Part shown: piece after piece, positions 172 through 51,444 of the stretch
How the letters are laid out: every line of letters begins with the position of its first letter
Position numbering within the stretch: position 1 is the stretch's first letter
Made by a program: the position numbers and the translations under genes
IMG/VR virus record: IMGVR_UViG_3300009183_006007
Span: 11,197 to 75,196 of that record
Origin: a virus
Length of the DNA: 64,000 nucleotides
Reading direction: 5' to 3' (one strand)
Notes under the pieces: generated by a model
The model's input: the letters and a program-made list of their open reading frames with translations, nothing else
The model's database searches: none
Told to the model about the DNA's origin: nothing

Positions 172-847
172 TGAACTAAAATTAATGGTAGAAGATTTTA
201 AGGTTGAACAAATTTATAAAAACTCACTATTCTCTGTAAAAAGTATCTGTGAGCATTTAGAAATTTGGGATAATTATTCAGATGAGGAAAAGTTCAAGTT
301 AGAAAACTTTACAGCCAGAGACTCCAAATTAAATAAGAACTTTACTTATAAAGGTAAGTATGACTCAAATTTAACATATGGTGAGATAACAAAAAAAGGA
401 GTTCAAACAATAATTGAAAAGATAACTAAATATAAAGATATAAAAGAATCTGACGTATTTGCTGATATTGGAAGTGGTTGTGGTAAGTTGGTTTTACAAA
501 TGGCAGTTAAAACAAAATTCAGAAATTTAGTTGGTGTTGAGATTGTTGATATCAGAAATAAATATGCAAAATCAATATTAGAACAAATATCACCAATTGA
601 TGATAAAAAGATTTTTTTTATCAATAAAGATGTAAGAGATTTTGACTTATCTATATGTAAAGTAATATTCACCAATAATGTACTTTTTGATTCTAACCTA
701 AATAATTTAATTTATGATAGACTACCTGAAGGTTGTCATATTATATCAATGTCACCATTTAACAAATGTAAGTTCTTAAAAGACACCTTTGATGTTGAAG
801 TATCATGGTCAGATAAAAAACATAAAATTTATTATTATATAAAATGA
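164..847 (+). CDS. DOT1-like class I SAM-dependent methyltransferase
   Basis: TYGE, DVFADIGSGCGK, GVEI and VIFTNNVLF motifs as in the DOT1 catalytic domain. Confidence 0.7.
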   Translation: MDNELKLMVEDFKVEQIYKNSLFSVKSICEHLEIWDNYSDEEKFKLENFTARDSKLNKNFTYKGKYDSNLTYGEITKKGVQTIIEKITKYKDIKESDVFADIGSGCGKLVLQMAVKTKFRNLVGVEIVDIRNKYAKSILEQISPIDDKKIFFINKDVRDFDLSICKVIFTNNVLFDSNLNNLIYDRLPEGCHIISMSPFNKCKFLKDTFDVEVSWSDKKHKIYYYIK

Positions 848-1338
848 TATTTAGAGAATTTTTACAAAATATTAAAACACAATTAGTTAATGTTGAACCT
901 AAATCAATATCCGTTTACCCAATTGGTGAAAATAACCTAGAAGGTATTAAAGTTTTAATTGATAATTGTTATAGAATGGGTAGTGAAAATAACAACATTA
1001 GAGTTGCAACAATGGACCCGTCATTGTGGTTAGGTCAATTCTTAGATAAACATTGGAATAAAATTTCTTATGTAACATCATTACCAACCTTTATTATAAT
1101 GAAAGTTGAAGATAATAAAATAGTTTCAAAACAATATAATACAGAAATAAGAGAGTTTGAATCTGAAGACTTAATTAATGATTTTTTTGAAAGAGGAAGA
1201 TGGAAAACACTTGTTATATTCTCTATTATAAAACACGTTGACTTAGTTAGTCTAAGTTCAACATATCGAGTAAGATATGCTGATATAACAGAGAAGTATG
1301 AAGAAAGAGATAATATAATAAACGAAATACTTAAATAA
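844..1338 (+). CDS. hypothetical protein with C-terminal RDNIINEIL tag
   Basis: 164-aa ORF with ATGA overlap to the upstream gene. Confidence 0.7.
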   Translation: MIFREFLQNIKTQLVNVEPKSISVYPIGENNLEGIKVLIDNCYRMGSENNNIRVATMDPSLWLGQFLDKHWNKISYVTSLPTFIIMKVEDNKIVSKQYNTEIREFESEDLINDFFERGRWKTLVIFSIIKHVDLVSLSSTYRVRYADITEKYEERDNIINEILK

Positions 1339-1343
1339 AAAAT

Positions 1344-1820
1344 ATGGAATTAGTAACAACAAAAATTTGTATGGCATTTGACTTAGGAGTTCATGGTAAT
1401 TACTTTGGTGGTAATATGATGTCTCTATTAGATGAATCGGCAGCGGCTTACTCTTGTCAAATATGTGACTCGGCTAAAATGGTCACACTAAAAATAGAAG
1501 AAGTGATTTTTCAAAGTCCAGTTAAAGTAGGTAATCTTATTAAGATTTATGCTTCTGTTGATAAATTTGGAACAACTTCAATAACTATTAATCTTGAGGC
1601 AAGAAAACATAATGTTCACACAGGTAAACAAGAATTGGTATGTTCAACAAAAATGATATTTGTTAAACTAGATGAAGAAGGATCTTCCATTCCTATTTCA
1701 GATAGAGTTAAATCAAGATATTCAGATAGATTCAAAAAGTATGGTAGAGGATTACTTCATCCAGAAGAACTTGAAAAAGAAAATGAAGAAAAGAAAATTG
1801 CTAGGCTAGCAACAAAATAA
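1344..1820 (+). CDS. acyl-CoA thioesterase (hotdog fold, YciA-like)
   Basis: DLGVHGNYFGGNMMSLLDESA, VTL, PVKVG and GTTSI motifs. Confidence 0.85.
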   Translation: MELVTTKICMAFDLGVHGNYFGGNMMSLLDESAAAYSCQICDSAKMVTLKIEEVIFQSPVKVGNLIKIYASVDKFGTTSITINLEARKHNVHTGKQELVCSTKMIFVKLDEEGSSIPISDRVKSRYSDRFKKYGRGLLHPEELEKENEEKKIARLATK

Positions 1821-1829
1821 ATAAAAAAA

Positions 1830-2174
1830 ATGGAAAATTTACAATTAATAATGGCAACCGTTTTGATCACTCTAATATCAGGTGCACTGGTGGGTTCTTT
1901 AATCTACTTGGGTGTAGTTGTGAGAAAGTTAAGACGAACTGTTAAAGACAATGTAGTAGACATTACAAATCTACAAAATAACCTAAATGGTGAGGTTATA
2001 AACATATACAACAGAATAGATGAAGTTGAAAAATGTTTATATCAAAAATTAGATCAATTATATACATCATCTGATGATAATTATTCAGAATTGGATAGAA
2101 AAATAGATAGTCGATACGACAAATTGGTAGATAATATCTATAAAGATATGGAACAACTAAGACAAACAAAATAA
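1830..2174 (+). CDS. single-TM coiled-coil protein
   Basis: N-terminal hydrophobic helix followed by basic residues and a heptad-like region. Confidence 0.65.
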   Translation: MENLQLIMATVLITLISGALVGSLIYLGVVVRKLRRTVKDNVVDITNLQNNLNGEVINIYNRIDEVEKCLYQKLDQLYTSSDDNYSELDRKIDSRYDKLVDNIYKDMEQLRQTK

Positions 2175-2191
2175 TAAACTACTAGCCTAGC

Positions 2192-2221: not shown

Positions 2222-2470
2222 AGTTTAATACTTGTTTTAACTTCCAATCTCTTTCTTTAGAATTATCTTCAAATTGAAGTTCCTCTTCAGCAAATATAAT
2301 AGGAATTAAATGTTGCTTTATTTGATATTGACTTGGATATAAATCTAACTCAACTCTATAAACATTTAAGTCTTGTGTTGATTCCTTACTAGTAACTATA
2401 CTACCTACTCGATACTTAAGATCATCATAAGCTCTTGTTACAATAACAACCCGATCACCCTTTGAGAACT
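2220..2470 (-). CDS. small hypothetical protein (KFSKGDRV..., C-terminal RDWKLKQVL tag); start uncertain
   Basis: 3' part of ORF 2220..2579; the 5' part overlaps uvsE. Confidence 0.55.
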
Positions 2471-3381
2471 TTAAATTGTTGTCTGTATCTGATAACTGCC
2501 AGGTCTTTCGCTTTCGCTTCAATTTCCGTGTCAAAGTCAAGACCAAATGTTTTAATTTCTTCATAAATATAATCTGCATGTGCTGTTTGTTTTCCTGAAT
2601 TATCTTCTAATGTTTTTGGTGAACTCATATGAGTCATTGGTTGAATATCACCCCAAGTAGAACAAGCAAGTTTTAATGCCTCTTCTTGTGAGATATCTTT
2701 TGGTCCATAATTATGATGATGAAAATCATGAGTTATAGGTATTCCAATTTTCTTATAAATTAAATCATATAAAATCTTTGTTGAATATTGATTAGGACCA
2801 TCGTCATTTTCAACAACCAATCTTCTACGACAAGACTCACTTAAATTAAAAAATTGTTTACAGAATCTGTCAGCAGCTTCTTCTCTTGTTGGTTTGGTGG
2901 TATTAACATGTATGTTAATTGGATAATAACGGGTCTGATCTAAACACATTAAATCCATTATTTGAGCATGTTTATCTAATTCATCAATAGCATTTTTAAC
3001 AACAATTGGATTTTCACTAGCTGGAATACAGAAGTGTGTTGGGTGAAAAGAAAGTCTTATTTTTTTAGACTTTGAATAATCACCTATTGACTTTAACTTA
3101 TCTGATATAAGTTTGAAGTTTGGTAAATCTTCTAATTTATAAAAACCAATACATGGAAACATGTCACTTGACATTCTATAAACAAAAATATTATTTTTTA
3201 CATTCCATTGAAGTATTTTTTCAAGATCATTTATATTCTGTATGGCTAACTCAGATACATATCCAAGACCTTTAGTCTCAAATGTCTTTTTAGTCATTCC
3301 TCTATTGACTGTTATTTGGTCTTTTTTCTTTTTACCCTCGTTTATCGAGATATTAATACAACAATATCCTATATTACCCAT
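2455..3381 (-). CDS. uvsE: UV damage endonuclease
   Basis: IGYCCIN, YRMSSDMFP, RLSFHP, RLVVENDD, DFHHH, AHADYI and EAKAKDLA motifs. Confidence 0.92.
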   Translation of the reverse strand: MGNIGYCCINISINEGKKKKDQITVNRGMTKKTFETKGLGYVSELAIQNINDLEKILQWNVKNNIFVYRMSSDMFPCIGFYKLEDLPNFKLISDKLKSIGDYSKSKKIRLSFHPTHFCIPASENPIVVKNAIDELDKHAQIMDLMCLDQTRYYPINIHVNTTKPTREEAADRFCKQFFNLSESCRRRLVVENDDGPNQYSTKILYDLIYKKIGIPITHDFHHHNYGPKDISQEEALKLACSTWGDIQPMTHMSSPKTLEDNSGKQTAHADYIYEEIKTFGLDFDTEIEAKAKDLAVIRYRQQFKVLKG

Positions 3382-3386
3382 AAATA

Positions 3387-3550: not shown

Positions 3551-3554
3551 CAAT

Positions 3555-9583: not shown

Positions 9584-9853
9584 ATGAAATTTATAAAAGA
9601 ATGGTCTGAATGGAATCCTACATTAAATAAGGAAGTTTTAGATTTTGTTGAAACCAATAAAGTGAACTTAAGACATCTTTGGAAAGATGATATGAGTGAA
9701 GAAGAAAATATGAAATTCTTAATAGATTACTTTACTGAATACCCAGATGAAATGACTTCTTCTATAAAGACTGACAAAATTAAATCAGTAACACCTATAT
9801 CCGGTATTAAAAATGCGGTTCCGACTCTTCAAAATATTGGAGGTGTTTGTTAA
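9584..9853 (+). CDS. hypothetical protein
   Basis: 89-aa ORF after a TTATATATA box; MKFIKEW leader variant. Confidence 0.65.
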   Translation: MKFIKEWSEWNPTLNKEVLDFVETNKVNLRHLWKDDMSEEENMKFLIDYFTEYPDEMTSSIKTDKIKSVTPISGIKNAVPTLQNIGGVC

Positions 9854-10116
9854 ATATTAACTAAACTTTTTTCATTCCATTTTTCTAATGGAATTGAAAT
9901 TAAAGATTTTGTAAAATGCTCGTGTGATTTTCTTTGTTCTTCGGTTCCTCTATTAAAGTTCCAAAATTTAGCATCATCAGATGAGCATTGTAAAGTAACT
10001 GATCTTCCACCACCATCTGTTCTATATAGTCTAGAACCACAAATACTACATTTATAATTTGTATTCATTTCATTTAGTTGGTTAAAAAATGATTCATATT
10101 TAGTTAAGTGCTTCAT
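9850..10116 (-). CDS. small zinc-ribbon protein with leader MKHLTKYES
   Basis: CSICG..C motif. Confidence 0.65.
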   Translation of the reverse strand: MKHLTKYESFFNQLNEMNTNYKCSICGSRLYRTDGGGRSVTLQCSSDDAKFWNFNRGTEEQRKSHEHFTKSLISIPLEKWNEKSLVNI

Positions 10117-11721: not shown

Positions 11722-12138
11722 TTATTTACCTAGAAGTTTATCTAAGTTAGCATTTCTATTAATAATCTTATCTCCACCGATAAGTCTTTTAATATGGTCA
11801 ACTGAAAACTTATATGAGTTTCCGTTTGTGGATATAGCAATTACAGGATACTTTCTATTCTTAGTTTTGATGTCTGTAATTTCATAAACACCATTTGTTC
11901 CATGAAATTGCATACCTATAATATTCTGAGTGAATCCTAATCTTTTACAAACAGATTCGAATATCTTATCAACTCTTTCATTTTTCTCAGTAGTTACTAC
12001 TGACATTGTAGTAGTATATTTTGCAGGATTATAACTAATAGTACCAAATTCTATTTTAACATTTTCATCTTTCTCAATTTGAGCCAATGCTTTTCTAATT
12101 TTGTCTTGTACAGATTTAATTTTAATATCAGTTATCAT
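11722..12138 (-). CDS. hypothetical protein with C-terminal RNANLDKLL tag
   Basis: 138-aa ORF behind a TAnnTTTG box. Confidence 0.7.
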   Translation of the reverse strand: MITDIKIKSVQDKIRKALAQIEKDENVKIEFGTISYNPAKYTTTMSVVTTEKNERVDKIFESVCKRLGFTQNIIGMQFHGTNGVYEITDIKTKNRKYPVIAISTNGNSYKFSVDHIKRLIGGDKIINRNANLDKLLGK

Positions 12139-12193
12139 ATATCTTATTTTGTTTGAAATACAAATATAATAAATTTAATTAATATATACAAGT

Positions 12194-13249: not shown

Positions 13250-13398
13250 TAGATTAATGTGATTTTTTATAGCTTATGCTGTGTGCAAAAAGTTAATTAT
13301 ATATTCATGTTTTTTTATAAGTTTGTCAACTTTTTTGATTTTTTTAATAAATTTTTTATAAATTTTTAAGACTAGAAATTAGGTTAAACTTTAATAGA

Positions 13399-13447: not shown

Positions 13448-13933
13448 ATGACAATCAAAATTTATCCAGAAGATATAGTAAGAATGTGTTTATGGGATAA
13501 CTATGTATATTACATCGTTGGATCAGAGAAAGAAGCAGAAAAAATTCTGAAAGAAAATGCTGAAATGGAAATTACAGAAAGAGATGCACTTGTAATAGGT
13601 TTATTGAAAATTATTGAGACAGATAATCTTATTCATAAATTTAATACTTATGTAATGGAATTTTTAACAAACAAATCTATAAAACATAATGACTATTTAC
13701 TAGTTAGAAAAAAAACATTTGACTTATCAATTGATAAGTTTGTAGATAAATTCCCAGATTATTGGGAACCAAATAGCTACTGGTCTAATTCTTTAAAAGA
13801 CTTAGTAGATTATGTAGAAGTAATGAAAGTAGATATCGAAAAGATTGAGATTCATAAAGTTGTAGATAAAAACGTAACTTATGAGTTTTATAACTCAAAT
13901 AATATAAAAAAACTTTTAAAATTTAATTATTAA
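13448..13933 (+). CDS. hypothetical protein
   Basis: 161-aa ORF heading the grpE-dnaJ operon. Confidence 0.7.
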   Translation: MTIKIYPEDIVRMCLWDNYVYYIVGSEKEAEKILKENAEMEITERDALVIGLLKIIETDNLIHKFNTYVMEFLTNKSIKHNDYLLVRKKTFDLSIDKFVDKFPDYWEPNSYWSNSLKDLVDYVEVMKVDIEKIEIHKVVDKNVTYEFYNSNNIKKLLKFNY

Positions 13934-13935
13934 TT

Positions 13936-14400
13936 ATGGAGGAAAACACAAACCCTGAAGAAACTATTGAAAACACAATAGATCCTATTGAGGATCTAAA
14001 GTTGAAATTATCAGAATCTGAAGATAAGTATGTTAGACTTTTCGCAGAGTTTGATAATTATAAAAAGAGAGTTCAAAAAGAAAAAGAAGATATCAAAAAC
14101 AATACAAAGGTATCTATGATAACATCTATTCTTGATATGGATAATGATATTGCTATTGCTATCAAAAATATCAAAGATGAAGTAACCAGAGAAGGTGTTG
14201 AACTGATTGCTCAAAAGTTAGAAAGATTCTTAAAGAGTCAAGGTATCGAAAGTATTCAAACTGAAACTTATGATGATGAGTTACACGAAGTTATCAGTGT
14301 AGTACCTACTGGCAAGACTGAGGTTATTGATGTCGTTAGTAAAGGTTATATGTTAAATGGTAAACCTTTCAGACACCCAAAAATTGTTATTGGTAAATAA
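13936..14400 (+). CDS. grpE: nucleotide exchange factor GrpE
   Basis: RLFAEFDNYKKR, LHEVI and KGYMLNGKPFRHPKIVI motifs. Confidence 0.92.
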   Translation: MEENTNPEETIENTIDPIEDLKLKLSESEDKYVRLFAEFDNYKKRVQKEKEDIKNNTKVSMITSILDMDNDIAIAIKNIKDEVTREGVELIAQKLERFLKSQGIESIQTETYDDELHEVISVVPTGKTEVIDVVSKGYMLNGKPFRHPKIVIGK

Positions 14401-14972
14401 TGAAAACTAAAAGCTTATTAGAAATTTATAAAGATGTTGACTATAAAAAAACCATCATTGATACATTGTGTCAAGGTATAGGTAGTCAACATATTTATTC
14501 TTTTAAGGCTTTATTAGAGTACGTGATAGATAAAAAATATCATCTATTCGACAGAGAAGAATTCAAAGGTTCTTTATACTCAGATGAAGATGAAACTTTA
14601 GATTTAGTTTTACCAGCAGTTAGGAGAGTTTTTGGAAAAGTTTTCATTGACCAACCACCTCTATTTAAAAGTGGAGGTCCTTTTACAGCTAGATATAAAT
14701 TATTCACTATGTATTTCAATGCTGATGAATTTGTTGATTATCTAATTGATATGTTTATTAAATCAAAAGATTGTCTTCAACACTTTGAACATATTGATAG
14801 AACTGCTGAGACATTATCTTTAATAGTTGATAACTATGTTGCTGATTTAGTTCAACGAGTTCTAAGTATTGAAGATCACCAAGAAGCAATTAATAATATT
14901 TTGAAGCAAATTAAAAGAGAAGAAACTATTGAACAAGTACTTGATGATGAAGAATCAAATGAACTATTATGA
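14400..14972 (+). CDS. hypothetical protein with REETIEQVL tag near the C-terminus
   Basis: 190-aa ORF. Confidence 0.7.
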   Translation: MKTKSLLEIYKDVDYKKTIIDTLCQGIGSQHIYSFKALLEYVIDKKYHLFDREEFKGSLYSDEDETLDLVLPAVRRVFGKVFIDQPPLFKSGGPFTARYKLFTMYFNADEFVDYLIDMFIKSKDCLQHFEHIDRTAETLSLIVDNYVADLVQRVLSIEDHQEAINNILKQIKREETIEQVLDDEESNELL

Positions 14973-15283
14973 TTGATTGGTATGTTGAAATATCCGACTC
15001 AGCTCCAGAAGGATTCAAAGGAGATAGGTATTTAGGAAATGTCATAGATACAGCCTCTCCTTGTATGGATTACTTTTGTAATCGACTGACTGAGATGAAA
15101 GATTGGAAACTAGAAGATGCTAATAATATCTTTAGGGAAATAATAGAAGAACTTCCAATTATGTCAGCCAAAATTTATAACAATGAATTTAGAATAGATT
15201 ATAATAGATGGGTAACTATAAAACTGACAGAAACACCCATACAAATATATAGAGAATCAAAAATAAGACAAATATTAGAATAA
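14969..15283 (+). CDS. hypothetical protein with C-terminal RESKIRQIL tag
   Basis: 104-aa ORF. Confidence 0.7.
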
Positions 15284-15284
15284 G

Positions 15285-16352
15285 ATGAGTAAAGATTATT
15301 ACAAAGTACTAGGCGTAGATAAAAACGCTTCAGATGATGAAATAAAAAAAGCATATAGAAAAAAAGCTATGGAATTTCATCCAGACAAAAATCCGGATAA
15401 TCCAGAAGCAGAGTCTAAATTTAAAGAAGCTGCTGAAGCATATGATACATTATCATCACCGGATAAAAAAGCTAGTTATGATAGATACGGAACAACTGGT
15501 AACCCATTTGGTGGAGGTGGAAATCCATTTGGTGGAGGTGGATTTAATATGGAAGATATTTTTTCACAATTTGGTGATGTATTTGGAAATTCATTTAATC
15601 AAAGATATGGTGGTGGACAAAGACCACAAAGTAAAGGATCTAATCTAAGAATAAAAGTTAGTTTAACTATTGATGAGATTCTAAAAGGAGCAGTTAAGAA
15701 ATTAAAATATAAGAGACAAGATAAATGTAATTCTTGTAATGGTGTAGGTGGAACTGATCCAAGAACTTGTATTCCTTGTAATGGTTCTGGTCAAAGAACA
15801 ATTGTTCAAAACACACCATTCGGTCAAATCAGACAAGTCGCTACTTGTCCAGATTGTTCTGGTAGTGGTAAAGTTGTTGCTGTGAAATGTAACTCTTGTA
15901 GAGGTGAAGGAGTAAGTATTAAAGAACAAGTAGTTGATGTTGAAATCCCCAAAGGAGTTTCTAATGGAATGCAATTAACAATGCAGGGATTTGGTAACTT
16001 TATTAAAAATGGATCGGCTGGTGACTTACAAATTATAATAGAAGAAATAATTGACCACTCTTTTAGAAGAGAAAATAATAATATAGTTGTGGAAAAAACT
16101 ATATCTGTTATAGATGCTATTATTGGATCAAATATTAAAGTCTCAACACCACATGGTGAGATACCAATTGCTATTGAGCCAGGAACAGAACACGGAAAGG
16201 TTTATAGAGTATCAGGTAAAGGAATTCCAGATATTAATTATGGACTTGGTGATCTTTATGTTAAAATCAGTATTAAAATTCCAAAGAAAATTGAGTTGGA
16301 TGAAAAATACACTCTTGAGAAATTAAAATCTTCGAAAAACTTTTCAGTATAA
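15285..16352 (+). CDS. dnaJ: chaperone DnaJ (class A)
   Basis: J domain with HPD, G/F-rich region and four CxxCxGxG repeats. Confidence 0.97.
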
Positions 16353-17482: not shown

Positions 17483-17878
17483 ATGAAACACTTAAAAAAA
17501 TTTAACGAATCATTAAAAGAACCAATTGATGTTGAATCTGATATTATCGAGTTCAAAGAAAAATTGGGTAAAGCTTATCATAACTTCTTTTTAAAAATGT
17601 ATGTCTATTCACCTGAAGAAGAATATGCTAAAGCAATGAATAATATAGAACACCTTATAGTATCTAATCCAACTATGACTGATGATTGGGATGTTTGGGA
17701 AGTTTATGGAACAGATGATTATGGTAGAAATTCTGGAACAATTATGAATGTTAGAGCTGTTTCTAAATTACATGCTAAAATTAAAGTAGCTACTATTAAA
17801 AATAATTTAGAAATATTAGCTACTGGTTACTACTCAGCATCTAAGACTTCTAAATCCGATTTCCATAGGTATATATAG
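17483..17878 (+). CDS. hypothetical protein with leader MKHLKKFNES
   Basis: 131-aa ORF downstream of the neck gene. Confidence 0.7.
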   Translation: MKHLKKFNESLKEPIDVESDIIEFKEKLGKAYHNFFLKMYVYSPEEEYAKAMNNIEHLIVSNPTMTDDWDVWEVYGTDDYGRNSGTIMNVRAVSKLHAKIKVATIKNNLEILATGYYSASKTSKSDFHRYI

Positions 17879-19484: not shown

Positions 19485-19676
19485 TTAAATAAGTTTGTTT
19501 AATTGTGATTCTCTATGACATTCTTTACAAACTCTTACATTCATGAACCCATTTATCCCAAGTACGGTTCTTGGGACTTGTATAATACTGGATTCTTTTG
19601 TTGGTGTTTCATTCTTACATAAATGACAATCAACCACCATTATCCATTCTTCCATTGGATTTAACCGACGGTTCAT
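19485..19676 (-). CDS. small zinc-binding protein with C-terminal RESQLNKLI tag
   Basis: CHLC and CKEC pairs. Confidence 0.65.
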   Translation of the reverse strand: MNRRLNPMEEWIMVVDCHLCKNETPTKESSIIQVPRTVLGINGFMNVRVCKECHRESQLNKLI

Positions 19677-20077
19677 ACAAGTTCATTTAATAAGATGTTT
19701 CTTAATTCAGATTTATCTAATTCAGTTTCTTCAAATACAGAAATATCAAATACAACTTTTACATCATCGTTTCTAAACTTAGAAGATATAGTAGCTCTAT
19801 TTAGATATGTTTCCATTTCCCAGAATTCACTGGTCTCAACCACTAACCTATCTCTATCTCTAGACATTTCACCTTTTTGTAGCAATAGTTTGAACCTAAA
19901 AATATCGTTTAGTGTATTGTTAGTATCATCAAGTTTTATATCTAAGAGAATTATATCATATAGTGATCGAGGAATTGTAACCGTTAACTTAACTGGTTCC
20001 ATACTATACCACATATCTCCTTTGATTTGAGTTTTCCACTTACACGGAAAACCTTTACCATTGTAAAAAAACTTCAT
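19673..20077 (-). CDS. hypothetical protein with C-terminal RNILLNELV tag
   Basis: 134-aa ORF with coupled overlaps. Confidence 0.7.
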   Translation of the reverse strand: MKFFYNGKGFPCKWKTQIKGDMWYSMEPVKLTVTIPRSLYDIILLDIKLDDTNNTLNDIFRFKLLLQKGEMSRDRDRLVVETSEFWEMETYLNRATISSKFRNDDVKVVFDISVFEETELDKSELRNILLNELV

Positions 20078-20349: not shown

Positions 20350-20449
20350 ATTTTTAATATATAAACAAATATATGAAGTTTAATTAAATAATCCAAAAAC
20401 TAAACAAACTTAATTTATTTACTATAAAAATAACAAACTAATTTAAAAT

Positions 20450-21455: not shown

Positions 21456-21471
21456 ATTTAATATATATGTT

Positions 21472-22011: not shown

Positions 22012-22728
22012 ATGAAACATTTAAAAACTTATAATCAAATGAATGAGGAAATATCCTTTAAAGGATTAGCCCCAATTTTAACATCTTTAATTATGACACT
22101 AAGTTCTTCAGATGTTGCTGCATTTGGTGGTGCATTTGGTGGACATGGTGGATTTGGTGGACATGGATTTGGTAATCCATATGCTAATAGAGGAGGTGGA
22201 CAAATTGGCAACGGAGAAGGAAACGGACAAATTGGTATCGGACAAATTAGTGATCCCGGATACAAAAGACAGGCATCTAGTATAATTCAATCTCAATCAA
22301 GAAATATAATTAATGATTTGGAAAAGATGAAATCAGTAACTGATGATCCTCAATTACTATCCTTAATTAGCTCAATTAGTGAGTTATCAAATTGGCAATA
22401 TTCTGAGGGTGTTGAACCGATTAATTTGGTTCTTGGTAAGTTGAGAGGTTATATTAAATCACATGATGTAAATGATGATGTAATAAATAGCACTTTAGAT
22501 CATTTATCAAAGGGTGATATTGATAATATTAAATCTGACTATAACAGATTGTTGACAGAATATGATGATATTATCGGACATGGTACTGGTAATGCTAGAT
22601 CTGGAAATGTTAGTGGATTTGTTACTGCTATAGATGTTTTAAATATTATTTTATGCTTGTTATTATCAGTTTTAGTATTAGTTGTGGGTAAAGGATTCTG
22701 GGATTTATGGAGAACTAAATCCTATTAA
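22012..22728 (+). CDS. Gly-rich membrane protein with leader MKHLKTYNQMNEE
   Basis: Hydrophobic segment after the leader, GGxFGGHG repeats and a C-terminal TM helix. Confidence 0.7.
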   Translation: MKHLKTYNQMNEEISFKGLAPILTSLIMTLSSSDVAAFGGAFGGHGGFGGHGFGNPYANRGGGQIGNGEGNGQIGIGQISDPGYKRQASSIIQSQSRNIINDLEKMKSVTDDPQLLSLISSISELSNWQYSEGVEPINLVLGKLRGYIKSHDVNDDVINSTLDHLSKGDIDNIKSDYNRLLTEYDDIIGHGTGNARSGNVSGFVTAIDVLNIILCLLLSVLVLVVGKGFWDLWRTKSY

Positions 22729-22741
22729 AAAATAAATAATT

Positions 22742-23350
22742 ATGAAATACTTAAAAAGATTTAACGAAAGTAATAGTACACCATTTAGAAGTAAACTTCT
22801 TTATAAAGATTCTAATATTGGTAAATATGAACTATATGTTGATGGTTCTACTGGATGGGGAATAATATTCCCTAATGGTTATATGGAAATTGAAGAGGGT
22901 CCACACGAGTCTGTTGGTTTTATGAATGGTGAAATAAATGGAGTTAGTATAGGAGCAAGAGGAAATGATGTACCTAGAATACCTGGAAAATATTGGGAAG
23001 GTAATATGTCAAGTGATGAATTGTCAAGATTTTTTGATAGGGTTATTAGCAAATACAATAATATCACTGAATCATCTGATGATTATAAAGATTTAAGTAT
23101 GTATAATCCATACTATAGTGATAAAGATGAAAGTGATAAAGATAATCTATTGAAATGGTATATGAAAGGATTTAATGATGAGTTAAGAGGAACAACCACA
23201 ATTGAATCAGACAATAAAATAGATATGGTTGCTTATAACTTAGGAGCACAACACGCCATAATTGGTGATGATGTTTCTAGTATTGATAATCTATCTGATG
23301 AAGAAATAATATCTATGATTGAAGATATTTATAATAAAAATCAAAAATAA
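22742..23350 (+). CDS. hypothetical protein with leader MKYLKRFNES
   Basis: 202-aa ORF. Confidence 0.72.
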   Translation: MKYLKRFNESNSTPFRSKLLYKDSNIGKYELYVDGSTGWGIIFPNGYMEIEEGPHESVGFMNGEINGVSIGARGNDVPRIPGKYWEGNMSSDELSRFFDRVISKYNNITESSDDYKDLSMYNPYYSDKDESDKDNLLKWYMKGFNDELRGTTTIESDNKIDMVAYNLGAQHAIIGDDVSSIDNLSDEEIISMIEDIYNKNQK

Positions 23351-23353
23351 GAT

Positions 23354-23644
23354 ATGAAATATTTAAAAACATTTGAATCATATGATAATGATATCGCTAC
23401 TCAGATAGCTGAAGACCTTTTACCAAAACTTCAAAAGCTTAGACAAGAGAAAGGTAAGTTTACCGTAGGCATGTTTGATAACTATATGGAAGAAAGAGGT
23501 GGTAATATGAAACTAACTGATGAAATTATGAGTATACTTGTAAGTATGGGATTTGATTTTGATCCATATGATGATGAAGATGATAATGAATATGGTGATG
23601 ATGATTTAGATGATCATCCACTTTTTTCATATAATAAGAATTAA
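23354..23644 (+). CDS. acidic hypothetical protein with leader MKYLKTFES
   Basis: 96-aa ORF. Confidence 0.7.
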   Translation: MKYLKTFESYDNDIATQIAEDLLPKLQKLRQEKGKFTVGMFDNYMEERGGNMKLTDEIMSILVSMGFDFDPYDDEDDNEYGDDDLDDHPLFSYNKN

Positions 23645-23674
23645 AAAAGAGAGACCAATTGGTCTCTCTTTTTT
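23643..23674. terminator. bidirectional terminator
   Basis: AAAAAAGAGAGACC-AATT-GGTCTCTCTTTTTT. Confidence 0.88.
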
Positions 23675-23846
23675 ATTTTAATACCATATACTTAACACCG
23701 TCAACAATCTTCACTTTATACTTTCCAGTATCTTCTGATTTGACTTTCTTCTCAGCTCTTTTGGTAGCCTTAGTTCCTTTGGTGCTTTTATCTACTTCAC
23801 CAAATTTATTCTTTAATACCTCTCTCATTGAAAATCTCTCAGTCAT
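23673..23846 (-). CDS. 57-aa basic protein not in the ORF track (MTERFSMREVLKNKF...KIVDGVKYMVLK)
   Basis: Translated by hand; TATATTTG promoter at 23871 and terminator at its end. Confidence 0.7.
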   Translation of the reverse strand: MTERFSMREVLKNKFGEVDKSTKGTKATKRAEKKVKSEDTGKYKVKIVDGVKYMVLK

Positions 23847-23916
23847 ATTTTTTAGTTTTTGTTTGTCTTACAAATATAAGGAATCTTTTTGAATAACAAT
23901 ATTAAATATATACAAT

Positions 23917-24357
23917 ATGAAATATCTTAAAGGATTTAACGAATCAATGGAAGAACAAATCTATAAACAAGTTCTTGATTCTATAAAAGATTGTTTTCAA
24001 GAGTTTGAGGATAATGGTTGGTATTGGATAGCGGATTCTTATTCAGGTACTTATCCAGGTATATCTATTTGGCAAAATCCAAACTTTAATTGTAGAATGA
24101 TGAATAAAGAAGAATCTGATCCAAGAAACTGGACTCTAAATAAAAATCCTTACGAAAAAAACATTGATATTACTGGTGAAATTAAATCAGATGGTTCTAT
24201 TAATTGGGAAATGAATGAAGACGAAACAGATAGTGAAGATGGTAAAGATTTTTTAGTTGCTGTAAAAAGATTACATGATGAAACTGGACTTGATTTCAAT
24301 TTCTCATATAATAATAGAGGTGGTGAAAGAAGAATAATAATACAAGGTAGAATATGA
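23917..24357 (+). CDS. hypothetical protein with leader MKYLKGFNES
   Basis: 146-aa ORF after a late box. Confidence 0.72.
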   Translation: MKYLKGFNESMEEQIYKQVLDSIKDCFQEFEDNGWYWIADSYSGTYPGISIWQNPNFNCRMMNKEESDPRNWTLNKNPYEKNIDITGEIKSDGSINWEMNEDETDSEDGKDFLVAVKRLHDETGLDFNFSYNNRGGERRIIIQGRI

Positions 24358-24752
24358 AAAGACTAAGAAAATTTAATGAGAGTGTATCTCAAATAGATTA
24401 TGATTATGTATATAGTTGTTTTGCTGAACTTATAGATGATAATAAAGCTGAGATAGAATTGATGCAAGGTGAATATGTTAAAGTACCATACATAACTATT
24501 AGATTAAAAACTATTCCTAAAATAGATCCTAGAACTACTAGTCAAGCAAAACCTATTGAAAATAAAAAGTCCTCTATCTATAATTATATTACAGGACATA
24601 ATAGTAATAATGAGTTATTACAAGAATTAGAAGTTAGTATAAATAGATTATCGGAAGAATATCCTGATTATAAATTACAATTTAATGATTGGGGTACTTC
24701 CATATTTATGGAAATATTTAAAAATACAGAAGAAGAAAAATATCCATTTTAA
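24354..24752 (+). CDS. hypothetical protein with leader MKRLRKFNES
   Basis: 132-aa ORF. Confidence 0.72.
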   Translation: MKRLRKFNESVSQIDYDYVYSCFAELIDDNKAEIELMQGEYVKVPYITIRLKTIPKIDPRTTSQAKPIENKKSSIYNYITGHNSNNELLQELEVSINRLSEEYPDYKLQFNDWGTSIFMEIFKNTEEEKYPF

Positions 24753-27041: not shown

Positions 27042-27288
27042 AATATTTGAGTGGGTTGAAGTTAGTAATAAACTTGAGAAGAAATTTGAATTTAAGGATT
27101 TCTTACAAGCTCTTAAATTCATAAATGAACTTTCTAAAATTTGTGAAGAGCAAAATCATCACCCCGAAATAAATTGGATTTATAATAAAGTGAAACTTAC
27201 TTTATCTACACACGATGCTGGTGATATTGTTACAAAAAAAGATTTAAAATTATCAAAGTCAATTGATGAAATACTTAAAAACATATAA
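27019..27288 (+). CDS. pterin-4-alpha-carbinolamine dehydratase with leader MKHLKTYKIFE
   Basis: FKDFLQALKF, NHHPEI and LSTHDAG motifs. Confidence 0.9.
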   Translation: MKHLKTYKIFEWVEVSNKLEKKFEFKDFLQALKFINELSKICEEQNHHPEINWIYNKVKLTLSTHDAGDIVTKKDLKLSKSIDEILKNI

Positions 27289-27976
27289 ACTATTCGAATC
27301 AGTTATTACTGAATTTGAATTTCCTACAGAATTGGATATTCAAGAACTATTCTATGATCTAACAGATGAAGATACAAACTCTAAATGTAAATTATATTCA
27401 TCAGGTTATCAGTTTTTTACAACAGATAATATAACAAGATCTATTAGAAGTCAATTATTCTCCGATATGAGTTTTGAAGAAAACTGGATAAATAAAGAAT
27501 GTGAAGATACTCAAGATACTTGGAAAAATATGTTTATTGATTTATCTAAACCTGTATCAAATGATATGATTAAATTGGCTGTTAGAAATTATAATGATGT
27601 TTATTTTTTAGAGGTTGAAGAATCAAAAAATAGTGCTGGTAAAAGTTATCTTGAAAGATTACAAGAAAATATATTAAATGATATTATTCCGGCTTATCCA
27701 ATTATTTATTTAAATCTAGGTCTTTTTCATCCAGATAAATTACCAGTAGTTGTAGAGTGTTTACAAAGATTATATGAAGTAACTGGGTTTAGACCAACTT
27801 CATCAGTTTGGGCTGAAGATTATGTAGATGAGGAAACAGGAGATCTTGTTACTTTTTATGGAGCTGACTTACAACTTTATAAAGTAAATGATATAGAATA
27901 TCAGAATCTATGTAAGATTGTTGGAAGAATAAATCCAAATAATAAAACACAAGAAGTAACTAAACATTTTTTATGA
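27266..27976 (+). CDS. hypothetical protein with leader MKYLKTYKLFES
   Basis: ORF 27263..27976; second Met preferred as start. Confidence 0.72.
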   Translation: MKYLKTYKLFESVITEFEFPTELDIQELFYDLTDEDTNSKCKLYSSGYQFFTTDNITRSIRSQLFSDMSFEENWINKECEDTQDTWKNMFIDLSKPVSNDMIKLAVRNYNDVYFLEVEESKNSAGKSYLERLQENILNDIIPAYPIIYLNLGLFHPDKLPVVVECLQRLYEVTGFRPTSSVWAEDYVDEETGDLVTFYGADLQLYKVNDIEYQNLCKIVGRINPNNKTQEVTKHFL

Positions 27977-29942: not shown

Positions 29943-30872
29943 ATGAGTCTTAAAGATAAAATATTTAAAAATAATAAAACTGGAGAAGTTGTAAAAGTTA
30001 TCGATTCGTTTGAAAACATTGCTATTCTTGAAAATAGAGATAAAGCTGATGTTAGTAGACTTATGAATCCGGAATTTTATACCGAACAAATAGATCCATC
30101 AACTTTCTTTAATAACCAAGGTTCTTATAACTTACTAGCAGATAAAATTAAAAATATACCAGCTGATAAAATCAGAGATGATGAAGGTGGAGAAGTTATG
30201 ATTAATATAGATGGTAATAATTCATCAAGTTCTGTTAGACCATCTACTGATGAAAGTGCTATAGTTATGGTATCTGAAGAAGATGAAAGAGCTGAGTTAG
30301 CTAGAAAGTATAATGTTGATACCTCTCAAAATGAGGTTGCTAAACAAAATCAAGCCTTTGCTAAACTATTAGGTGAAGAAGAGGAAGTTCAAACTATTGA
30401 AGTAAATAGAGAACAACCTCAACCAGTTCAACAAAGACCTCAGGTTCAATCACAACCTATTCAACCAGTTGCTCAAGTAGAAGATCCTATTATTACAATG
30501 TTTAAGAATGTTAAAAGAATAAAAGATTTTTCAATATCTCTTGAAATAAAAAATAAAATTCCAAGACCTGACTTTATTGAAATGATGGAAGATTCATATA
30601 ATACAAGTATTATTGATTTCCTGGCATCTGAATTTACAGATAACTTACTTAGAAATCCACAAATCATAGAAGATATGATTAGACAGAAGATTAAAGAGGT
30701 TGTTTACGGTGCTGAAGTTGGAGTTAAAGATGTTAATCCACAGATTACTGATTCAGTTACTCAGGTTGAACACGAACCTCTTAGTATTGAAAAGGAACCT
30801 GTTTTATCAAAAGACCTTCCTAAAAAAACAACTACTAGAAAACCTAGAGCTAAAAAAGAAGTTTCTAAATAA
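29943..30872 (+). CDS. hypothetical protein with Q/P-rich linker and basic tail
   Basis: 309-aa ORF. Confidence 0.72.
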   Translation: MSLKDKIFKNNKTGEVVKVIDSFENIAILENRDKADVSRLMNPEFYTEQIDPSTFFNNQGSYNLLADKIKNIPADKIRDDEGGEVMINIDGNNSSSSVRPSTDESAIVMVSEEDERAELARKYNVDTSQNEVAKQNQAFAKLLGEEEEVQTIEVNREQPQPVQQRPQVQSQPIQPVAQVEDPIITMFKNVKRIKDFSISLEIKNKIPRPDFIEMMEDSYNTSIIDFLASEFTDNLLRNPQIIEDMIRQKIKEVVYGAEVGVKDVNPQITDSVTQVEHEPLSIEKEPVLSKDLPKKTTTRKPRAKKEVSK

Positions 30873-31267
30873 TGATTGATGAAAAATATCTAAAAGTAGC
30901 TATAAATATAAGAAGAACATATTTAAAACTAATTAATAATCTAGATTTATATAAAAAAATAGCAGACTCAATTTCTAAAAAATTAATCGAGACAGTAAAA
31001 GATATTGAAGATATCGAAAAAGATTACATTGATAAAAAAATTAATGATGAGCAATCTTTACAAAAAGCTTTATCTATTTTAAGTAGTGTTGAGAAAGAAG
31101 GTAAAAGATTGGAAGAAGCTATAGATCCAATAAATATAGAGATAGAAAAATTAGCAAAAGAAGAACAAGAATTATTTCGACAAATAGTTGAACGACATTC
31201 TAACTTATCACAAGACCAAATAGTCTCAATAGTAAGAGATAGATTAATAAAAGAGGGACTTTCTTAA
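30872..31267 (+). CDS. coiled-coil hypothetical protein
   Basis: 131-aa ORF. Confidence 0.68.
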   Translation: MIDEKYLKVAINIRRTYLKLINNLDLYKKIADSISKKLIETVKDIEDIEKDYIDKKINDEQSLQKALSILSSVEKEGKRLEEAIDPINIEIEKLAKEEQELFRQIVERHSNLSQDQIVSIVRDRLIKEGLS

Positions 31268-33279: not shown

Positions 33280-33878
33280 TGAGATTAAGTAGTCAGGGTA
33301 GTCAGTTCGTTTTTAATCTTCCAAGTGATTTTCTCAAACCAGAGGTACTTGCAACATATACTCCAATTTTAGAAAAGAATTGGGTTCAATATGAGAATGT
33401 TATAGATTATATTAATTCGACAATTAAGTCGGTTAATTTCCCAGGTATCTCATTTGATATGCCTAAACAAACATTAATCAGAGGTAAGGAAAGACAATAC
33501 AAACCAGCAAAGAATGTTCAGGATATCACAACTACACACGATTTAACAATTACTTTTAGATCAGTAGATTCTGATTTAAATTATTGGTTAGTTTTTGATA
33601 TTATTAATAAACATTATTTAGATGTTGAAAACTCATTTGTATTTCCATTTACAATTACTTGTGTTGATATACATAGAGATGGTATTTATGTTATTAGATT
33701 TTATGAAATTATATTAAAATCATTATCTGAGAATAACTTTAATTACTCTCAACAAAAGGTGAGCTCTAAAGAATTCACAATGACATTTCATTTTAACTTC
33801 TATGATATTGAATTCTTACTTAATAGAAGTAAGATATTGGAATTGGGCACATTACCAATAATTATTCAGAAGCTCTAA
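33279..33878 (+). CDS. tail-tube-fold protein (T4 gp19/gp3/gp54-like)
   Basis: SVNFPGISF, DLTITF, LSENNFNY and FTMTFHFN pattern. Confidence 0.55.
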   Translation: MRLSSQGSQFVFNLPSDFLKPEVLATYTPILEKNWVQYENVIDYINSTIKSVNFPGISFDMPKQTLIRGKERQYKPAKNVQDITTTHDLTITFRSVDSDLNYWLVFDIINKHYLDVENSFVFPFTITCVDIHRDGIYVIRFYEIILKSLSENNFNYSQQKVSSKEFTMTFHFNFYDIEFLLNRSKILELGTLPIIIQKL

Positions 33879-34086
33879 ATATTTTATTAATAGAGTTCTT
33901 TCTTCTTTTATTTCTTGATTCTAATCCTAAGCTTTTTAGAATTTCCATGTCAATAGATTTTGATAATTCATCTGATAACATTTTACTCAGTTCATCAACA
34001 ACATCAAGTCCATAATGTTCACTTAATTTATCTGCTTCCGAATTTGAGTAGATTTCACCACCGGATCCTGTTTTAATTTGATTCAT
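33862..34086 (-). CDS. small hypothetical protein with RKNSINKIF tag
   Basis: 74-aa ORF at the end of the glycan operon. Confidence 0.6.
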   Translation of the reverse strand: MNQIKTGSGGEIYSNSEADKLSEHYGLDVVDELSKMLSDELSKSIDMEILKSLGLESRNKRRKNSINKIFRASE

Positions 34087-44580: not shown

Positions 44581-44581
44581 A

Positions 44582-46919: not shown

Positions 46920-46926
46920 TGGTTTT

Positions 46927-48909: not shown

Positions 48910-48920
48910 ATTTATTATAT

Positions 48921-48956
48921 AAAAAAAAAGAGAGAAGTTAACCTTCTCTCTTTTTT
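48921..48956 (-). terminator. terminator after clpC
   Basis: A9-GAGAGAAG-TTAAC-CTTCTCTC-T6. Confidence 0.8.
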
Positions 48957-48958
48957 AA

Positions 48959-51088
48959 TTACTCAGAATCTTTCTTTTTTCTTGTAGCTTTCTTCTTTGG
49001 TGGAGAAGTAATTACAACAAACATATTATCATCTTCTTTGTTATAATCCAATAATAATTTAGAATTTTTCTCAGGATTCTGTTGAATGATTTCCTCTGTT
49101 AGAACATCTTCAACATATTTCTGAATAGCTCTCTTCAAAGGTCTTGCTCCATATTCTGGATCAAACCCTTGAGTAGCGATATATTCAGATGCTCCTTCTG
49201 TGATTTCTAATTCAAATTCCATCTTTTTAACTCTTTCTACCAAGCCACCCAACTCAATATCAATGATTTTGTTGATATCTTCTTTGTTTAAAGAGTTAAA
49301 CATTACAACATCATCAATACGATTTAAGAACTCAGGTGCAAATTTCTTCTTCAATTCTTTTTCAATTACTGAATTAGTTTCTTCGGTTGATTTGCTTTCT
49401 TTATTCTTAGTAGAGAATCCAACACCTGTTCCGAATTCTTTCAACTGACGTGAACCAGTATTAGAAGTCATAATGATAATTGTATTCTTAAAGTTTACTT
49501 TTCTACCAAGTGAATCTGTTAACTGACCATCATCAAGTACTTGAAGTAACAAGTTGAATACTTCTGGATGAGCTTTCTCAATCTCATCTAAAAGAATTAC
49601 TGAGTAAGGTTTACGTCTAACTTTTTCAGTTAACTGACCACCTTCATCGTGTCCAACATATCCTGGAGGAGCTCCAATCAAACGAGATACTGCGAATTTC
49701 TCCATATATTCAGACATATCAATTCTAATTAAAGAATCTTCTGACTCGAATAAGTATCTAGCAAGAATCTTAGCCAATTGAGTTTTACCAACTCCTGTAG
49801 GTCCCAAGAACATAAATGAACCAATTGGTTTACTTGGATCTTTCAAACCAACACGACCTCTTTGAATAGCTTTTACAATCTTCTTAACAGCTTCATCTTG
49901 ACCAATAACTTTACCAATGATACTTTCTTGCATTTTGGCTAATTTACTAGTTTCGTTTAGAGATACTTTTTGAAGAGGAATGCCAGTCATCATCGAAACA
50001 ACTTCAGCAACATTATCTTCTGTAACCGTTTGTTTGTTGTTAGAACATTCTTCTTCCCATTTCTTTCTCTCTTTTTCCAAAGACTCGTTAAGTTGTCTTT
50101 CAACGTCTCTTAACTTAGCAGCTTCTTCATATTTCTGAGAACGAATAACTCCATTTTTCTTTTCTTTAATCTCAACTATCTTATTTTCAATATCAGTGAT
50201 TTCTTTCGGAACAACGATATTAGAAATGTGAACACGAGATCCAGCTTCGTCTAAAGCATCAATAGCCTTGTCTGGTAAGAATCTATCAGCAACATATCTG
50301 TCAGTTAAGTCAACACAAGCCTTGATAGCTTCTTCTGTGTAAATCACATTATGGTGTGATTCATACTTATCTTTAATGTTGTTGATAATTTGGAATGTTT
50401 CATCTGGTGATGCAGGTTCAACAATAACTTTTTGAAAACGTCTTTCCAAAGCTCCATCCTTTTCAATATGCTTACGATATTCATCTAAAGTAGTAGCACC
50501 AATGATTTGGATTTCTCCACGAGCTAAAGCCGGTTTGAACATATTAGAAGCATCTAAAGATCCTGAAGCACCACCTGCACCGATAATTGTATGAATTTCA
50601 TCGATGAAAAGTATCACATCTGGTTCTTTTTCAAGTTCAGCCATTAAAGCTTTAATTCTTTCTTCAAATTGACCACGATATTTAGTTCCAGCAACCATAG
50701 AAGCCAAATCCAACATAACGATTCTTTTATTAAAAAGAATTCTACTAACTTTTCTTTGAATGATTCTCAATGCTAATCCTTCAGCGATTGAAGATTTACC
50801 AACACCAGGTTCACCAATTAAAATAGGGTTATTCTTTTTTCTACGAGATAGAATTTGAGATACTCTTTCGATTTCTTTTTCTCTACCTACGATAGGGTCA
50901 AGACGACCTTCTTCCCCCATTTTGGTTAAGTCTCGACTATAAGTGTCTAAAACCGGAGTTTTAGATTTAGAATCAGACTTTTTAGAAGAACCAAAAGATG
51001 AATCATCTTCATCATCTTCAATAGCGGATCTAATATCAGGTATTGTGTAATTTCCCTCTTCAATTTTTTTATTATCCATAGTATTCAT
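48959..51088 (-). CDS. clpC: ClpC-type AAA+ chaperone lacking the N-terminal Clp-repeat domain
   Basis: GEPGVGKS and GPTGVGKT Walker A motifs, UVR-like YEEAAKLRD middle domain, VGF ClpP-binding loop. Confidence 0.9.
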
Positions 51089-51099
51089 TATTTTATTAT

Positions 51100-51444
51100 T
51101 TAATTTATATTATTTTTATTGTCATTGTTTAGTAAATCATCTATAATTTCATCACGTCTTTCAGAAATATTTGATGGGTTTAATAAATCACATCTTAAAG
51201 ATATATTCATTCTGGATGAATTGCAATCAATAGATTTTATTTGAGTTCCTTTTCCATCGAATTCTTTTCCTATTAAATCGAATTTAGTTTTATTCTCATA
51301 CATATTAAAAAAGAAATCAGAATATGTTGGGTATTTCTTCAAATCGATTTCTATATTAATTGTTGCGTGTGCCATAACAGATAATTGAACAACACAATCT
51401 TTAATAAAATAAATCTCATTTTCTATTTTTACCCAATCACTCAT
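51100..51444 (-). CDS. hypothetical protein with RDEIIDDLL tag
   Basis: 114-aa ORF. Confidence 0.68.
   Translation of the reverse strand: MSDWVKIENEIYFIKDCVVQLSVMAHATINIEIDLKKYPTYSDFFFNMYENKTKFDLIGKEFDGKGTQIKSIDCNSSRMNISLRCDLLNPSNISERRDEIIDDLLNNDNKNNIN

Follow-up and report, generated by a model that had tools for sequence, protein, structure and literature searches.

Why should so many small proteins with no other common feature end in the same short helix? This question is raised by a 64-kb window of DNA from IMG/VR virus record IMGVR_UViG_3300009183_006007 (positions 11,197 to 75,196 of a 75,196-bp contig; 28% G+C and ~95% coding under table 11), in which unrelated small orphan proteins terminate in a short helix with the core R-[D/E/N]-x-K-[I/L]-x-x-[I/L]-L, hereafter the tag. 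By the window we mean this whole stretch; coordinates are positions within it, and a further 11 kb of the contig precede it. The original prediction had proposed an amphipathic docking helix that acts as an address label on about nine of the encoded proteins. We find that the tag is a portable amphipathic helix selected as a peptide on unrelated proteins, and on balance we regard it as a C-terminal docking helix that serves as the address label of presumed early proteins.

The source of the DNA is an uncultured giant phage. Its closest records are the metagenomic megaphages LR745206.1 (634,780 bp) and LR756502.1 (642,428 bp), in which 14–21% of reading frames are tagged, as are about one tenth of the contig's proteins. 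The capsid protein of both megaphages is of the T4 type (Pfam Gp23), and capsid comparison places at greater distance LR756504.1, LR756501.1, LR756500.1, the Lak phages of Prevotella, and, among cultured phages, jumbo phages of Tenacibaculum, Chryseobacterium and Flavobacterium together with Sphingomonas phage PAU.

The strict form of the tag, R[DEN]xx[IL]xx[ILV]L, was counted against residue shuffles, and copies lying no more than 12 residues from the stop codon were scored as C-terminal. In the contig, which encodes ~105 open reading frames (ORFs), the strict pattern occurs seven times in the gene set versus 0.52 expected, and six of these copies are C-terminal versus 0.04 expected, with a maximum of two in 2000 shuffles; one further strict copy, in ORF 2220-2579, is missing from the gene set used for this count. 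Because the strict pattern was derived from the window's own proteins, it was also tested on sequences outside the window. The 11 kb upstream add two ORFs with an unambiguous tag and a weak candidate of the R-K type, and include one perfect terminal strict copy. In LR745206.1, 107 strict copies are found versus 4.7 expected; 89 are C-terminal versus 0.34 expected, and none lies within the first 12 residues of its protein. LR756502.1 yields 112 strict copies, 82 of them C-terminal. Lysine occupies position 4 in 59 of the 89 C-terminal copies of LR745206.1, though it is absent from the strict pattern, and a loose pattern that ignores position 2 matches ~200 times in each of the two megaphage genomes, where about 21–23 matches are expected.

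A de novo search of residue triplets, contrasting the last 20 residues with internal sequence and using no prior pattern, ranks the tag first. Its top signals are RxxKI, RDxK and RxxxIxxxL, with RxxKI present in 71 C-terminal windows versus 5.6 expected (p=4e-53). The C-terminal enrichment claimed in the original prediction thus holds against shuffles and against internal sequence alike. The full consensus reads K(-4)..[hydrophobic or Y](-1)-R1-[D/E/N]2-x-K4-[I/L]5-[N/D/K]6-x-[I/L/V]8-L9-[D/K/N]10, followed by 0–12 residues to the stop, and on a helical wheel R1, K4, I5, I8 and L9 share one face. A position-specific scoring matrix (PSSM) applied at ≥12 bits identifies the tag in 137 of the 972 ORFs of LR745206.1 and in 135 of the 989 of LR756502.1. 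The placement 'at or near C-termini' needs one qualification: the bias is strong, but the end position is not fixed (the gap to the stop has a mode of 1–2 residues), and ~17% of strict copies are internal (18 of 107 in LR745206.1). A sub-variant was also observed in which G takes the place of L9 and is followed by I or L and then the stop (...K-L-x-x-L-G-I-stop); it makes up 15–23% of tags, is co-resident with the main form in LR745206.1 and LR756502.1, and also occurs at IMG/VR loci.

Homologues retain the residues that define the helix. Fifty-two tagged proteins of LR745206.1 form reciprocal-best pairs with proteins of LR756502.1; the partner has a strong tag in 41 of these pairs, a weaker variant (often ...L-G-[IL]-stop) in seven and none in four. 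Against an overall pair identity of 43%, identity is 100% at R1 (the search patterns require Arg), 63% at position 2, 71% at K4, 68% at position 5, 63% at position 8 and 78% at L9, while the x positions remain at background (34–44%). The predicted conservation of the arginine and the hydrophobic positions is therefore borne out. Well-scoring proteins of the window and contig for which an orthologue exists keep the tag in eight of nine cases; the exception, 30872-31267, is probably a false tag call.

Gene ends are crowded places, and the peptide might be the by-product of a DNA or RNA signal located there, such as a promoter, terminator, recombination site or reinitiation signal. Genes are tightly packed, with 63% of tagged genes starting ≤5 nucleotides from the upstream gene, and the codons for K-I-D spell AAAATTGA. 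However, synonymous codons at each fixed tag position match genome usage (AGA 73% vs 76%, GAT 94% vs 91%), Ile and Leu interchange freely at positions 5 and 8, and in LR745206.1 the back-translated pattern is found 107 times in frame versus 33 times elsewhere, counting the other five frames plus non-coding DNA. Given ordinary codon usage and this in-frame excess, selection acts on the tag peptide and not on DNA or RNA, and an explanation by a nucleic acid signal is almost certainly wrong.

The proteins that carry the peptide are otherwise unlike one another. When the tag is removed, the 89 strictly tagged proteins of LR745206.1 form 88 BLAST clusters (E<1e-3). Pfam matches are found in three of the 100 longest tagged proteins and PHROGs matches in ten of them, the latter without informative annotation, and no Pfam or PHROGs family covers the tag itself in these 100 proteins. 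A likeness to half of the UVR motif (Pfam PF02151, a helical hairpin) was rejected, with one of 100 tagged proteins matching even at E up to 5. All tagged genes could nonetheless descend from one ancient duplicated family, the helix being its last recognisable part and hence a family signature. Tagged genes do cluster (39 tagged-tagged adjacencies), and LR756504.1 contains tandem arrays of genes of 70–100 amino acids with a longer conserved end. Common descent is difficult to reconcile with 88 clusters from 89 bodies, with protein lengths from 41 to 731 amino acids, with the two different folds modelled for tagged bodies (below) and with the presence of the tag inside larger proteins as well, and we consider it decidedly unlikely.

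Structural models of two tagged proteins computed with AlphaFold2 place the tag outside the folded core. The model of ORF 51100-51444 comprises a beta-barrel-like body with a predicted local distance difference test score (pLDDT) of about 90 and a helix at residues 90–106 with 53–58, whereas that of ORF 14969-15283 comprises an alpha/beta body at pLDDT 82–92 and a helix at residues 90–103 at 46. In both, the tag forms a terminal helix of pLDDT 46–58 on a body mostly at 76–94, and in both families it is the best-conserved segment. A helix that is conserved and yet predicted to be unpacked is as expected of a peptide that binds another partner. The tag likewise has the general properties of a portable short linear motif, namely conservation among orthologues with drifting flanks, unrelated carriers and a position outside the folded core. 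Codon usage, the 88 clusters from 89 proteins and the two unlike modelled folds together uphold the original description of an amphipathic helix on unrelated proteins. A fold search with ORF 51100-51444 returned weak matches only, to Hcp and phage tail-tube proteins (E 5e-3 and weaker), and an ESM Atlas search with the tag tail gave no usable match.

More distant kin alter the peptide on many proteins together. The capsid protein of LR756504.1 is 53% identical to that of LR745206.1, and a variant tag, R-K-x-[K/I/R]-I-[E/N/D]-x-L-[L/I], terminates ~171 of its 947 ORFs. Position 2 is D/E/N in 77% of LR745206.1 tags versus K/R in 54% of LR756504.1 tags (chi-square p=4e-31). LR756501.1 (735 kb), as distant as LR756504.1, lacks the R-D-x-K-I tag; it has instead a nearly invariant peptide, D-P-Y-G-E-E-x-W, on 88 ORFs, in ~45 of which this peptide starts 8–12 residues (usually 10) before the stop. 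Simultaneous change of a peptide on ~100 proteins points to a constraint that they have in common, of which a shared reader is the simplest form; for the position-2 change in LR756504.1, concerted evolution of arrays may also account, many carriers being tandem paralogues. These long tandem arrays of genes of 70–100 amino acids, at LR756504.1 221-5571 and 20537-26944, have a common extended end, either F-x-T-x-x-E-[Y/H]-R-K-x-I-I-E-x-L-[L/I]-stop or N-[D/N]-R-K-N-R-I-x-N-L-N. Other copies of D-P-Y-G-E-E-x-W are found just after the N-terminal leader described below or inside large proteins (e.g., LR756501.1 554211-556034 and 474651-476339).

A second peptide class, the N-terminal leader M-K-x-[L/I]-[K/R/T]-x-[F/Y]-(N/E)-E, occurs on nine contig ORFs (e.g., window 9850-10116(-), 17483-17878 and 22012-27976) and on 77–95 ORFs per complete relative. 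In sequence it resembles the T4 capsid-targeting sequence, MKTYQEFIAE. Leader and tag exclude one another, in agreement with the earlier observation that no tagged protein has the leader: LR745206.1 encodes 77 leader ORFs and 137 tagged ORFs, of which none has both versus 10.9 expected (p=9e-6), and a single ORF of LR756502.1 combines them versus 13 expected (p=1e-5). The two classes also avoid each other as neighbours, with two same-strand adjacencies in LR745206.1 versus an estimated ~14 by chance.

The two classes further differ in their promoters. Two motifs dominate the intergenic regions of LR745206.1, TTTAATATATA and TATATTTGTA. The former sits ~23 nucleotides before the start codon (window example 21460-21467(+)); the latter matches TAnnTTTG, the -7 consensus of Bacteroidota sigma-A (PMC9723704). 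In this genome the capsid gene and every gene of more than 900 amino acids lie behind the first of these, the AATATATA motif. Counted by gene, AATATATA versus TAnnTTTG, LR745206.1 has 26 versus 58 tagged genes, 52 versus 2 leader genes (p=1e-15) and 296 versus 168 others. Counted by unit, a tagged gene is held by 43% of TAnnTTTG units versus 7% of AATATATA units (p=1e-10), a result replicated in LR756502.1 (36% versus 7%, p=2e-7), and leader-holding units divide 40 versus 2 between AATATATA and TAnnTTTG in LR745206.1, 47 versus 2 in LR756502.1 and 28 versus 0 in LR756504.1. Of the nine window genes called as tagged by the PSSM, six belong to four TAnnTTTG units (boxes at 12161, 13318, 20366 and 53028), including the grpE-dnaJ and clpC units. 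By analogy with T4, and with promoter classes assigned from motifs, TAnnTTTG units may be early and AATATATA units phage-specific and late.

These promoter data also bear on whether the tag might direct packaging into the capsid, as a C-terminal equivalent of the T4 capsid-targeting sequence or of encapsulin cargo-loading peptides, by binding the interior of an HK97-fold shell or its scaffold. C-terminal shell-binding peptides exist in encapsulins and scaffolding proteins, the phage has a T4-type capsid protein, and a few tagged mini-proteins resemble capsid fragments. Yet tagged genes are under-represented behind the promoter type serving the capsid gene, the large genes and nearly all leader genes; in LR745206.1 the tag is not combined with the capsid-targeting-like leader, and the genes around the capsid gene, including the 707-residue ORF immediately upstream, lack a terminal tag. 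Packaging is accordingly very unlikely to be the function of the tag.

How, then, might one helix serve so many proteins? Our proposal is that the helix stays apart from the fold of its own protein and would dock its carriers on one shared partner as an address label, through a basic-hydrophobic face made up of R1, K4, I5, I8 and L9. The carriers would be fast-evolving orphans, found mainly in host-type (Bacteroidota sigma-A) promoter units and presumably early proteins. The leading candidate for the partner may be the phage's own proteostasis machinery, namely a ClpC-type unfoldase without an N-domain, which would take over early proteins for unfolding or timed removal. We lean towards the existence of a shared reader of the tag. 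Both the existence and the identity of a single reader, like the early timing of TAnnTTTG units, are things that we infer from these patterns. The address-label reading put forward originally therefore survives in part: portability, selection at the level of the peptide and exclusion of the leader favour it, but its argument from the chaperone operons finds no support (see below) and a carboxyl-end degron like ssrA is improbable.

The window encodes DnaK, GrpE, DnaJ, a ClpC-type ATPase, RNA ligase, Glu/Gln-tRNA synthetase and a sugar-nucleotide enzyme, among others, with GrpE and DnaJ identified by Pfam. The candidate reader, the ClpC-type unfoldase, is encoded at 48959..51088 on the minus strand (Pfam AAA, AAA_lid_9, UVR, AAA_2 and ClpB_D2-small). 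The Clp N-domain is missing from it, the middle domain is short and of the UVR type, and a VGF loop (residues 555–557) stands in the place of the ClpP-docking loop. A tagged gene lies directly upstream of clpC in three genomes, the window, LR745206.1 and LR756502.1. A ClpC orthologue of 72–90% identity is encoded by each of the IMG/VR records that are near-complete and rich in tags, and a precedent for a phage protein that retargets ClpC is SPO1 Gp53 (PMC6873191). ClpP homologues number two or three in each of LR745206.1, LR756502.1 and LR756504.1, with none in LR756501.1. Promoter motifs give no guide to the timing of the Clp genes: none could be attributed to clpC, and one clpP is headed by TAnnTTTG.

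The placement of tagged genes within chaperone operons, originally offered as evidence for the partner, is not supported as such. Two tagged genes lie between grpE and dnaJ in the window and in LR745206.1, but in LR756502.1 grpE adjoins dnaJ with no tagged gene between them; the placement is therefore incidental. With at least 14% of genes tagged, moreover, a tagged neighbour is often expected by chance. An ssrA-type degron at the carboxyl end is likewise unlikely, since the motif stands at no constant distance from the stop, is followed by varied tails and is also found internally.

Several observations weigh against the proposal of an address label read by ClpC. First, an absent N-domain means that the usual adaptor docking site is absent from the phage ClpC. 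Second, the co-occurrence of ClpC and tag is compatible with ClpC as reader but inseparable from shared ancestry, and it is imperfect: one tag-rich record, 83% complete, lacks ClpC, and LR756501.1 has a ClpC-like gene without the tag. Two near-complete tag-rich records have no phage ClpP, and phage ClpP was accordingly rejected as a necessary partner. Third, the link between tag and promoter class is not significant in LR756504.1; ~30% of promoter-assigned tagged genes stand behind AATATATA, and 37–47% of tagged genes have no assigned promoter motif. The early/late division itself is borrowed from T4 and from motif-based promoter classes. Finally, K, I, L, N and D are the commonest residues of this AT-rich proteome, which would ease the convergent appearance of a stabilising helix. 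ClpC is our first candidate for the reader of the tag, but an improbable one.

The last of these points suggests that the helix could be an intrinsic structural element without a common reader, a self-association element or stabilising cap acquired repeatedly under an AT-rich code. The variable tail of 0 to 12 residues after the motif, the internal copies and the prediction of a helix in both AlphaFold2 models would all suit such an element as well. Arginine, though, makes up 3.7% of residues and R1 is nevertheless identical in every orthologous pair, within the bounds of search patterns that require Arg; a generic helix would not require R1 plus K4. Nor would it be expected to shift at position 2 across more than 100 proteins at once between lineages, to be excluded from leader-bearing proteins or to remain unpacked in both models. 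We regard an intrinsic helix as unlikely, while granting it appreciable weight, and retain the docking helix with a shared reader as the preferred reading. A more ambitious form of that reading holds that giant phages of this lineage sort at least a fifth of their proteome by two mutually exclusive addresses, the N-terminal leader for packaged late proteins and the C-terminal helix for early proteins. The latter would be read by a phage machine, for example the N-domain-less ClpC together with host or phage ClpP, that gathers, employs or removes the whole early set on a fixed schedule, and tag and reader would evolve together between lineages (D/E/N to K at position 2; D-P-Y-G-E-E-x-W in LR756501.1). 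This extended scheme is possible, though we think it rather improbable.

The tag is distributed well beyond the megaphages. A degenerate DNA pattern of its commonest form matched 106 stretches in IMG/VR, and in most of the stretches among those listed the match is the end of an ORF, with neighbouring ORFs often ending alike. Whole-record counts against a reversed-pattern control give a clear excess in records of 116–476 kb (51 vs 11, 49 vs 5 and 37 vs 5), and the tag is seen in dozens of IMG/VR contigs of 17–476 kb. No excess of the tag is found in LR756501.1, LR756500.1 or Lak-A1, nor in the cultured phages Tenacibaculum PTm1 and pT24, Sphingomonas PAU, Chryseobacterium MA9V-2 and Flavobacterium MaF61. 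Searching with ClpC by tblastn brought up no cultured relative, and tblastn of two tagged proteins against phage records matched only the two megaphages. Literature searches directed at the tag or at phage Clp systems yielded no description of it, in line with what had been stated at the outset.

All ten peptides quoted in the original prediction are present at the ORFs to which they were assigned. A PSSM built from another genome gives 13.5–24.7 bits to eight of the window's nine C-terminal cases, so that the tally of about nine tagged proteins is sound for all but one. ORF 844-1338 (164 amino acids) ends in RDNIINEIL (1306..1332, plus strand; 17.0 bits; one residue to the stop), and its orthologue in LR756502.1 (54% identity) retains RDNKINSIL. 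RDWKLKQVL (2226..2252, minus strand; 20.3 bits; one residue to the stop) ends ORF 2220-2579. Read from its first ATG, this minus-strand ORF has 119 amino acids and then overlaps the end of the 308-residue ORF 2455-3381(-) by 125 nucleotides; its start is uncertain, and an alternative or non-ATG start is conceivable. RNANLDKLL (11731..11757, minus strand; 14.9 bits) ends ORF 11722-12138 (138 amino acids), the orthologues of which retain RNANI[DE][KR]LI; this is the first gene of the unit headed by a TATATTTG box, of the TAnnTTTG type, at 12161..12168 on the minus strand.

A TAAGTTTG box at 13318..13325 on the plus strand heads the unit 13448-16352, which consists of ORF 13448-13933, grpE, two tagged genes and dnaJ. 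The first of the two, ORF 14400-14972 (190 amino acids), carries REETIEQVL (14916..14942, plus strand; 21.8 bits) near its end with a nine-residue tail, and its LR745206.1 orthologue is still tagged. The second, ORF 14969-15283 (104 amino acids), ends in RESKIRQIL (15251..15277, plus strand; 24.7 bits); its family comprises 127 clusters in metagenomes, and Q92, I93, Y94, R95 and K98 are invariant among 33 aligned members. On the minus strand, a further TATATTTG box at 20366..20373 heads the unit 20349-19485, which includes two tagged genes. RESQLNKLI (19488..19514, minus strand; 14.0 bits) lies at the extreme end of ORF 19485-19676 (63 amino acids), and RNILLNELV (19676..19702, minus strand; 13.5 bits) at the extreme end of ORF 19673-20077 (134 amino acids), for which the LR745206.1 orthologue carries RDLIINDLF.

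The poorly scoring case is RKNSINKIF (33877..33903, minus strand; 0.7 bits), near the end of ORF 33862-34086 (74 amino acids). Its peptide, RRKNSINKIF, belongs to a weaker R-K...I..I-F subtype that is conserved in the LR745206.1 orthologue, and the body of the protein gives a sub-threshold match to positions 162–199 of Pfam Gp23 (E=4.5e-4). Similar mini-proteins of 50–75 amino acids, window 33862-34086(-) and LR745206.1 440182-440361 and 255010-255367, show sub-threshold Gp23 matches to different parts of the profile, and their ends represent the R-K-x-x-I-x-x-I-F tag subtype. The minus-strand unit that holds clpC is headed by a TAACTTTG box at 53028..53035 and contains ORF 51100-51444 (114 amino acids), with RDEIIDDLL (51130..51156, minus strand; 20.8 bits) near its end and a nine-residue tail; E-R-R-D and I-I-D are invariant in this family (12 homologues). 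The one internal copy reported for the window is present too: RNSTINNIL (59350..59376, minus strand; 18.3 bits) occupies residues 68–76 of ORF 58861-59577 (238 amino acids) and is found at the corresponding internal position in both orthologues.

Hundreds of small orphan genes form the largest unexplained part of huge-phage genomes, and a label on 14–21% of reading frames sorts them into classes and gives an experimental handle. One tagged reporter or synthetic peptide could capture the common partner and so hint at the purpose of the whole gene class. A tag that is complementary to the leader and tracks promoter type suggests that giant phages organise their proteomes by peptide addresses, a principle so far known mainly from the T4 head. 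If the reader were a phage-encoded unfoldase or protease, the virus would run a programmed handling of its own early proteins, and the tag could serve as a portable protein-targeting tool in Bacteroidota.

Comparison with known systems sets the tag apart from each of them. The T4 internal proteins IPI, IPII and IPIII are given a common destination by the capsid targeting sequence (CTS) (PMC3012670). The tag resembles the CTS in being a short conserved peptide that is the only shared part of diverse, fast-evolving phage proteins. In contrast, the CTS is N-terminal, is cut by the prohead protease and acts in head assembly, whereas the tag is C-terminal and its genes mostly lie behind another promoter type than head genes (7% of capsid-type AATATATA units are tagged versus 43% of TAnnTTTG units). 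Adaptors and degrons of AAA+ proteases, such as ssrA, the C-terminal ClpX-binding peptide of SspB, MecA with ClpC, and SPO1 Gp53, are likewise small proteins or short peptides at a terminus, and supply a Clp unfoldase with cargo or retarget it; the phage studied here does encode a ClpC with a ClpP-docking loop. The tag differs from them as a helix at variable distance from the carboxyl end, also found internally, and is borne by 14–21% of ORFs where those systems involve a few, while the phage ClpC lacks the adaptor-binding N-domain.

The same key register (2, 5, 8, 9) is shared with the PIP-box (Q-x-x-[ILM]-x-x-[FY]-[FY]) and the gp45-binding tails of T4, and clamp-binding peptides, too, are usually C-terminal and common to unrelated clients. 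However, the tag has neither the Gln nor the aromatic residues of the PIP-box, its equivalent positions being D/E/N (K in LR756504.1) and I/L/V then L, and an invariant Arg precedes the motif; its carriers are also far more numerous than clamp clients and are orphans rather than DNA enzymes. In the ankyrin/PRANC (F-box-like) families of poxviruses, a variable target-binding body is joined to a conserved C-terminal helical module that docks on cellular machinery. The tag has no sequence relation or Pfam match to these families, its host is bacterial, and its bodies are unrelated orphans in place of repeats. As an analogy, the likeness lies in the architecture, a variable body plus a short C-terminal helix, multiplied into a large set of viral genes.

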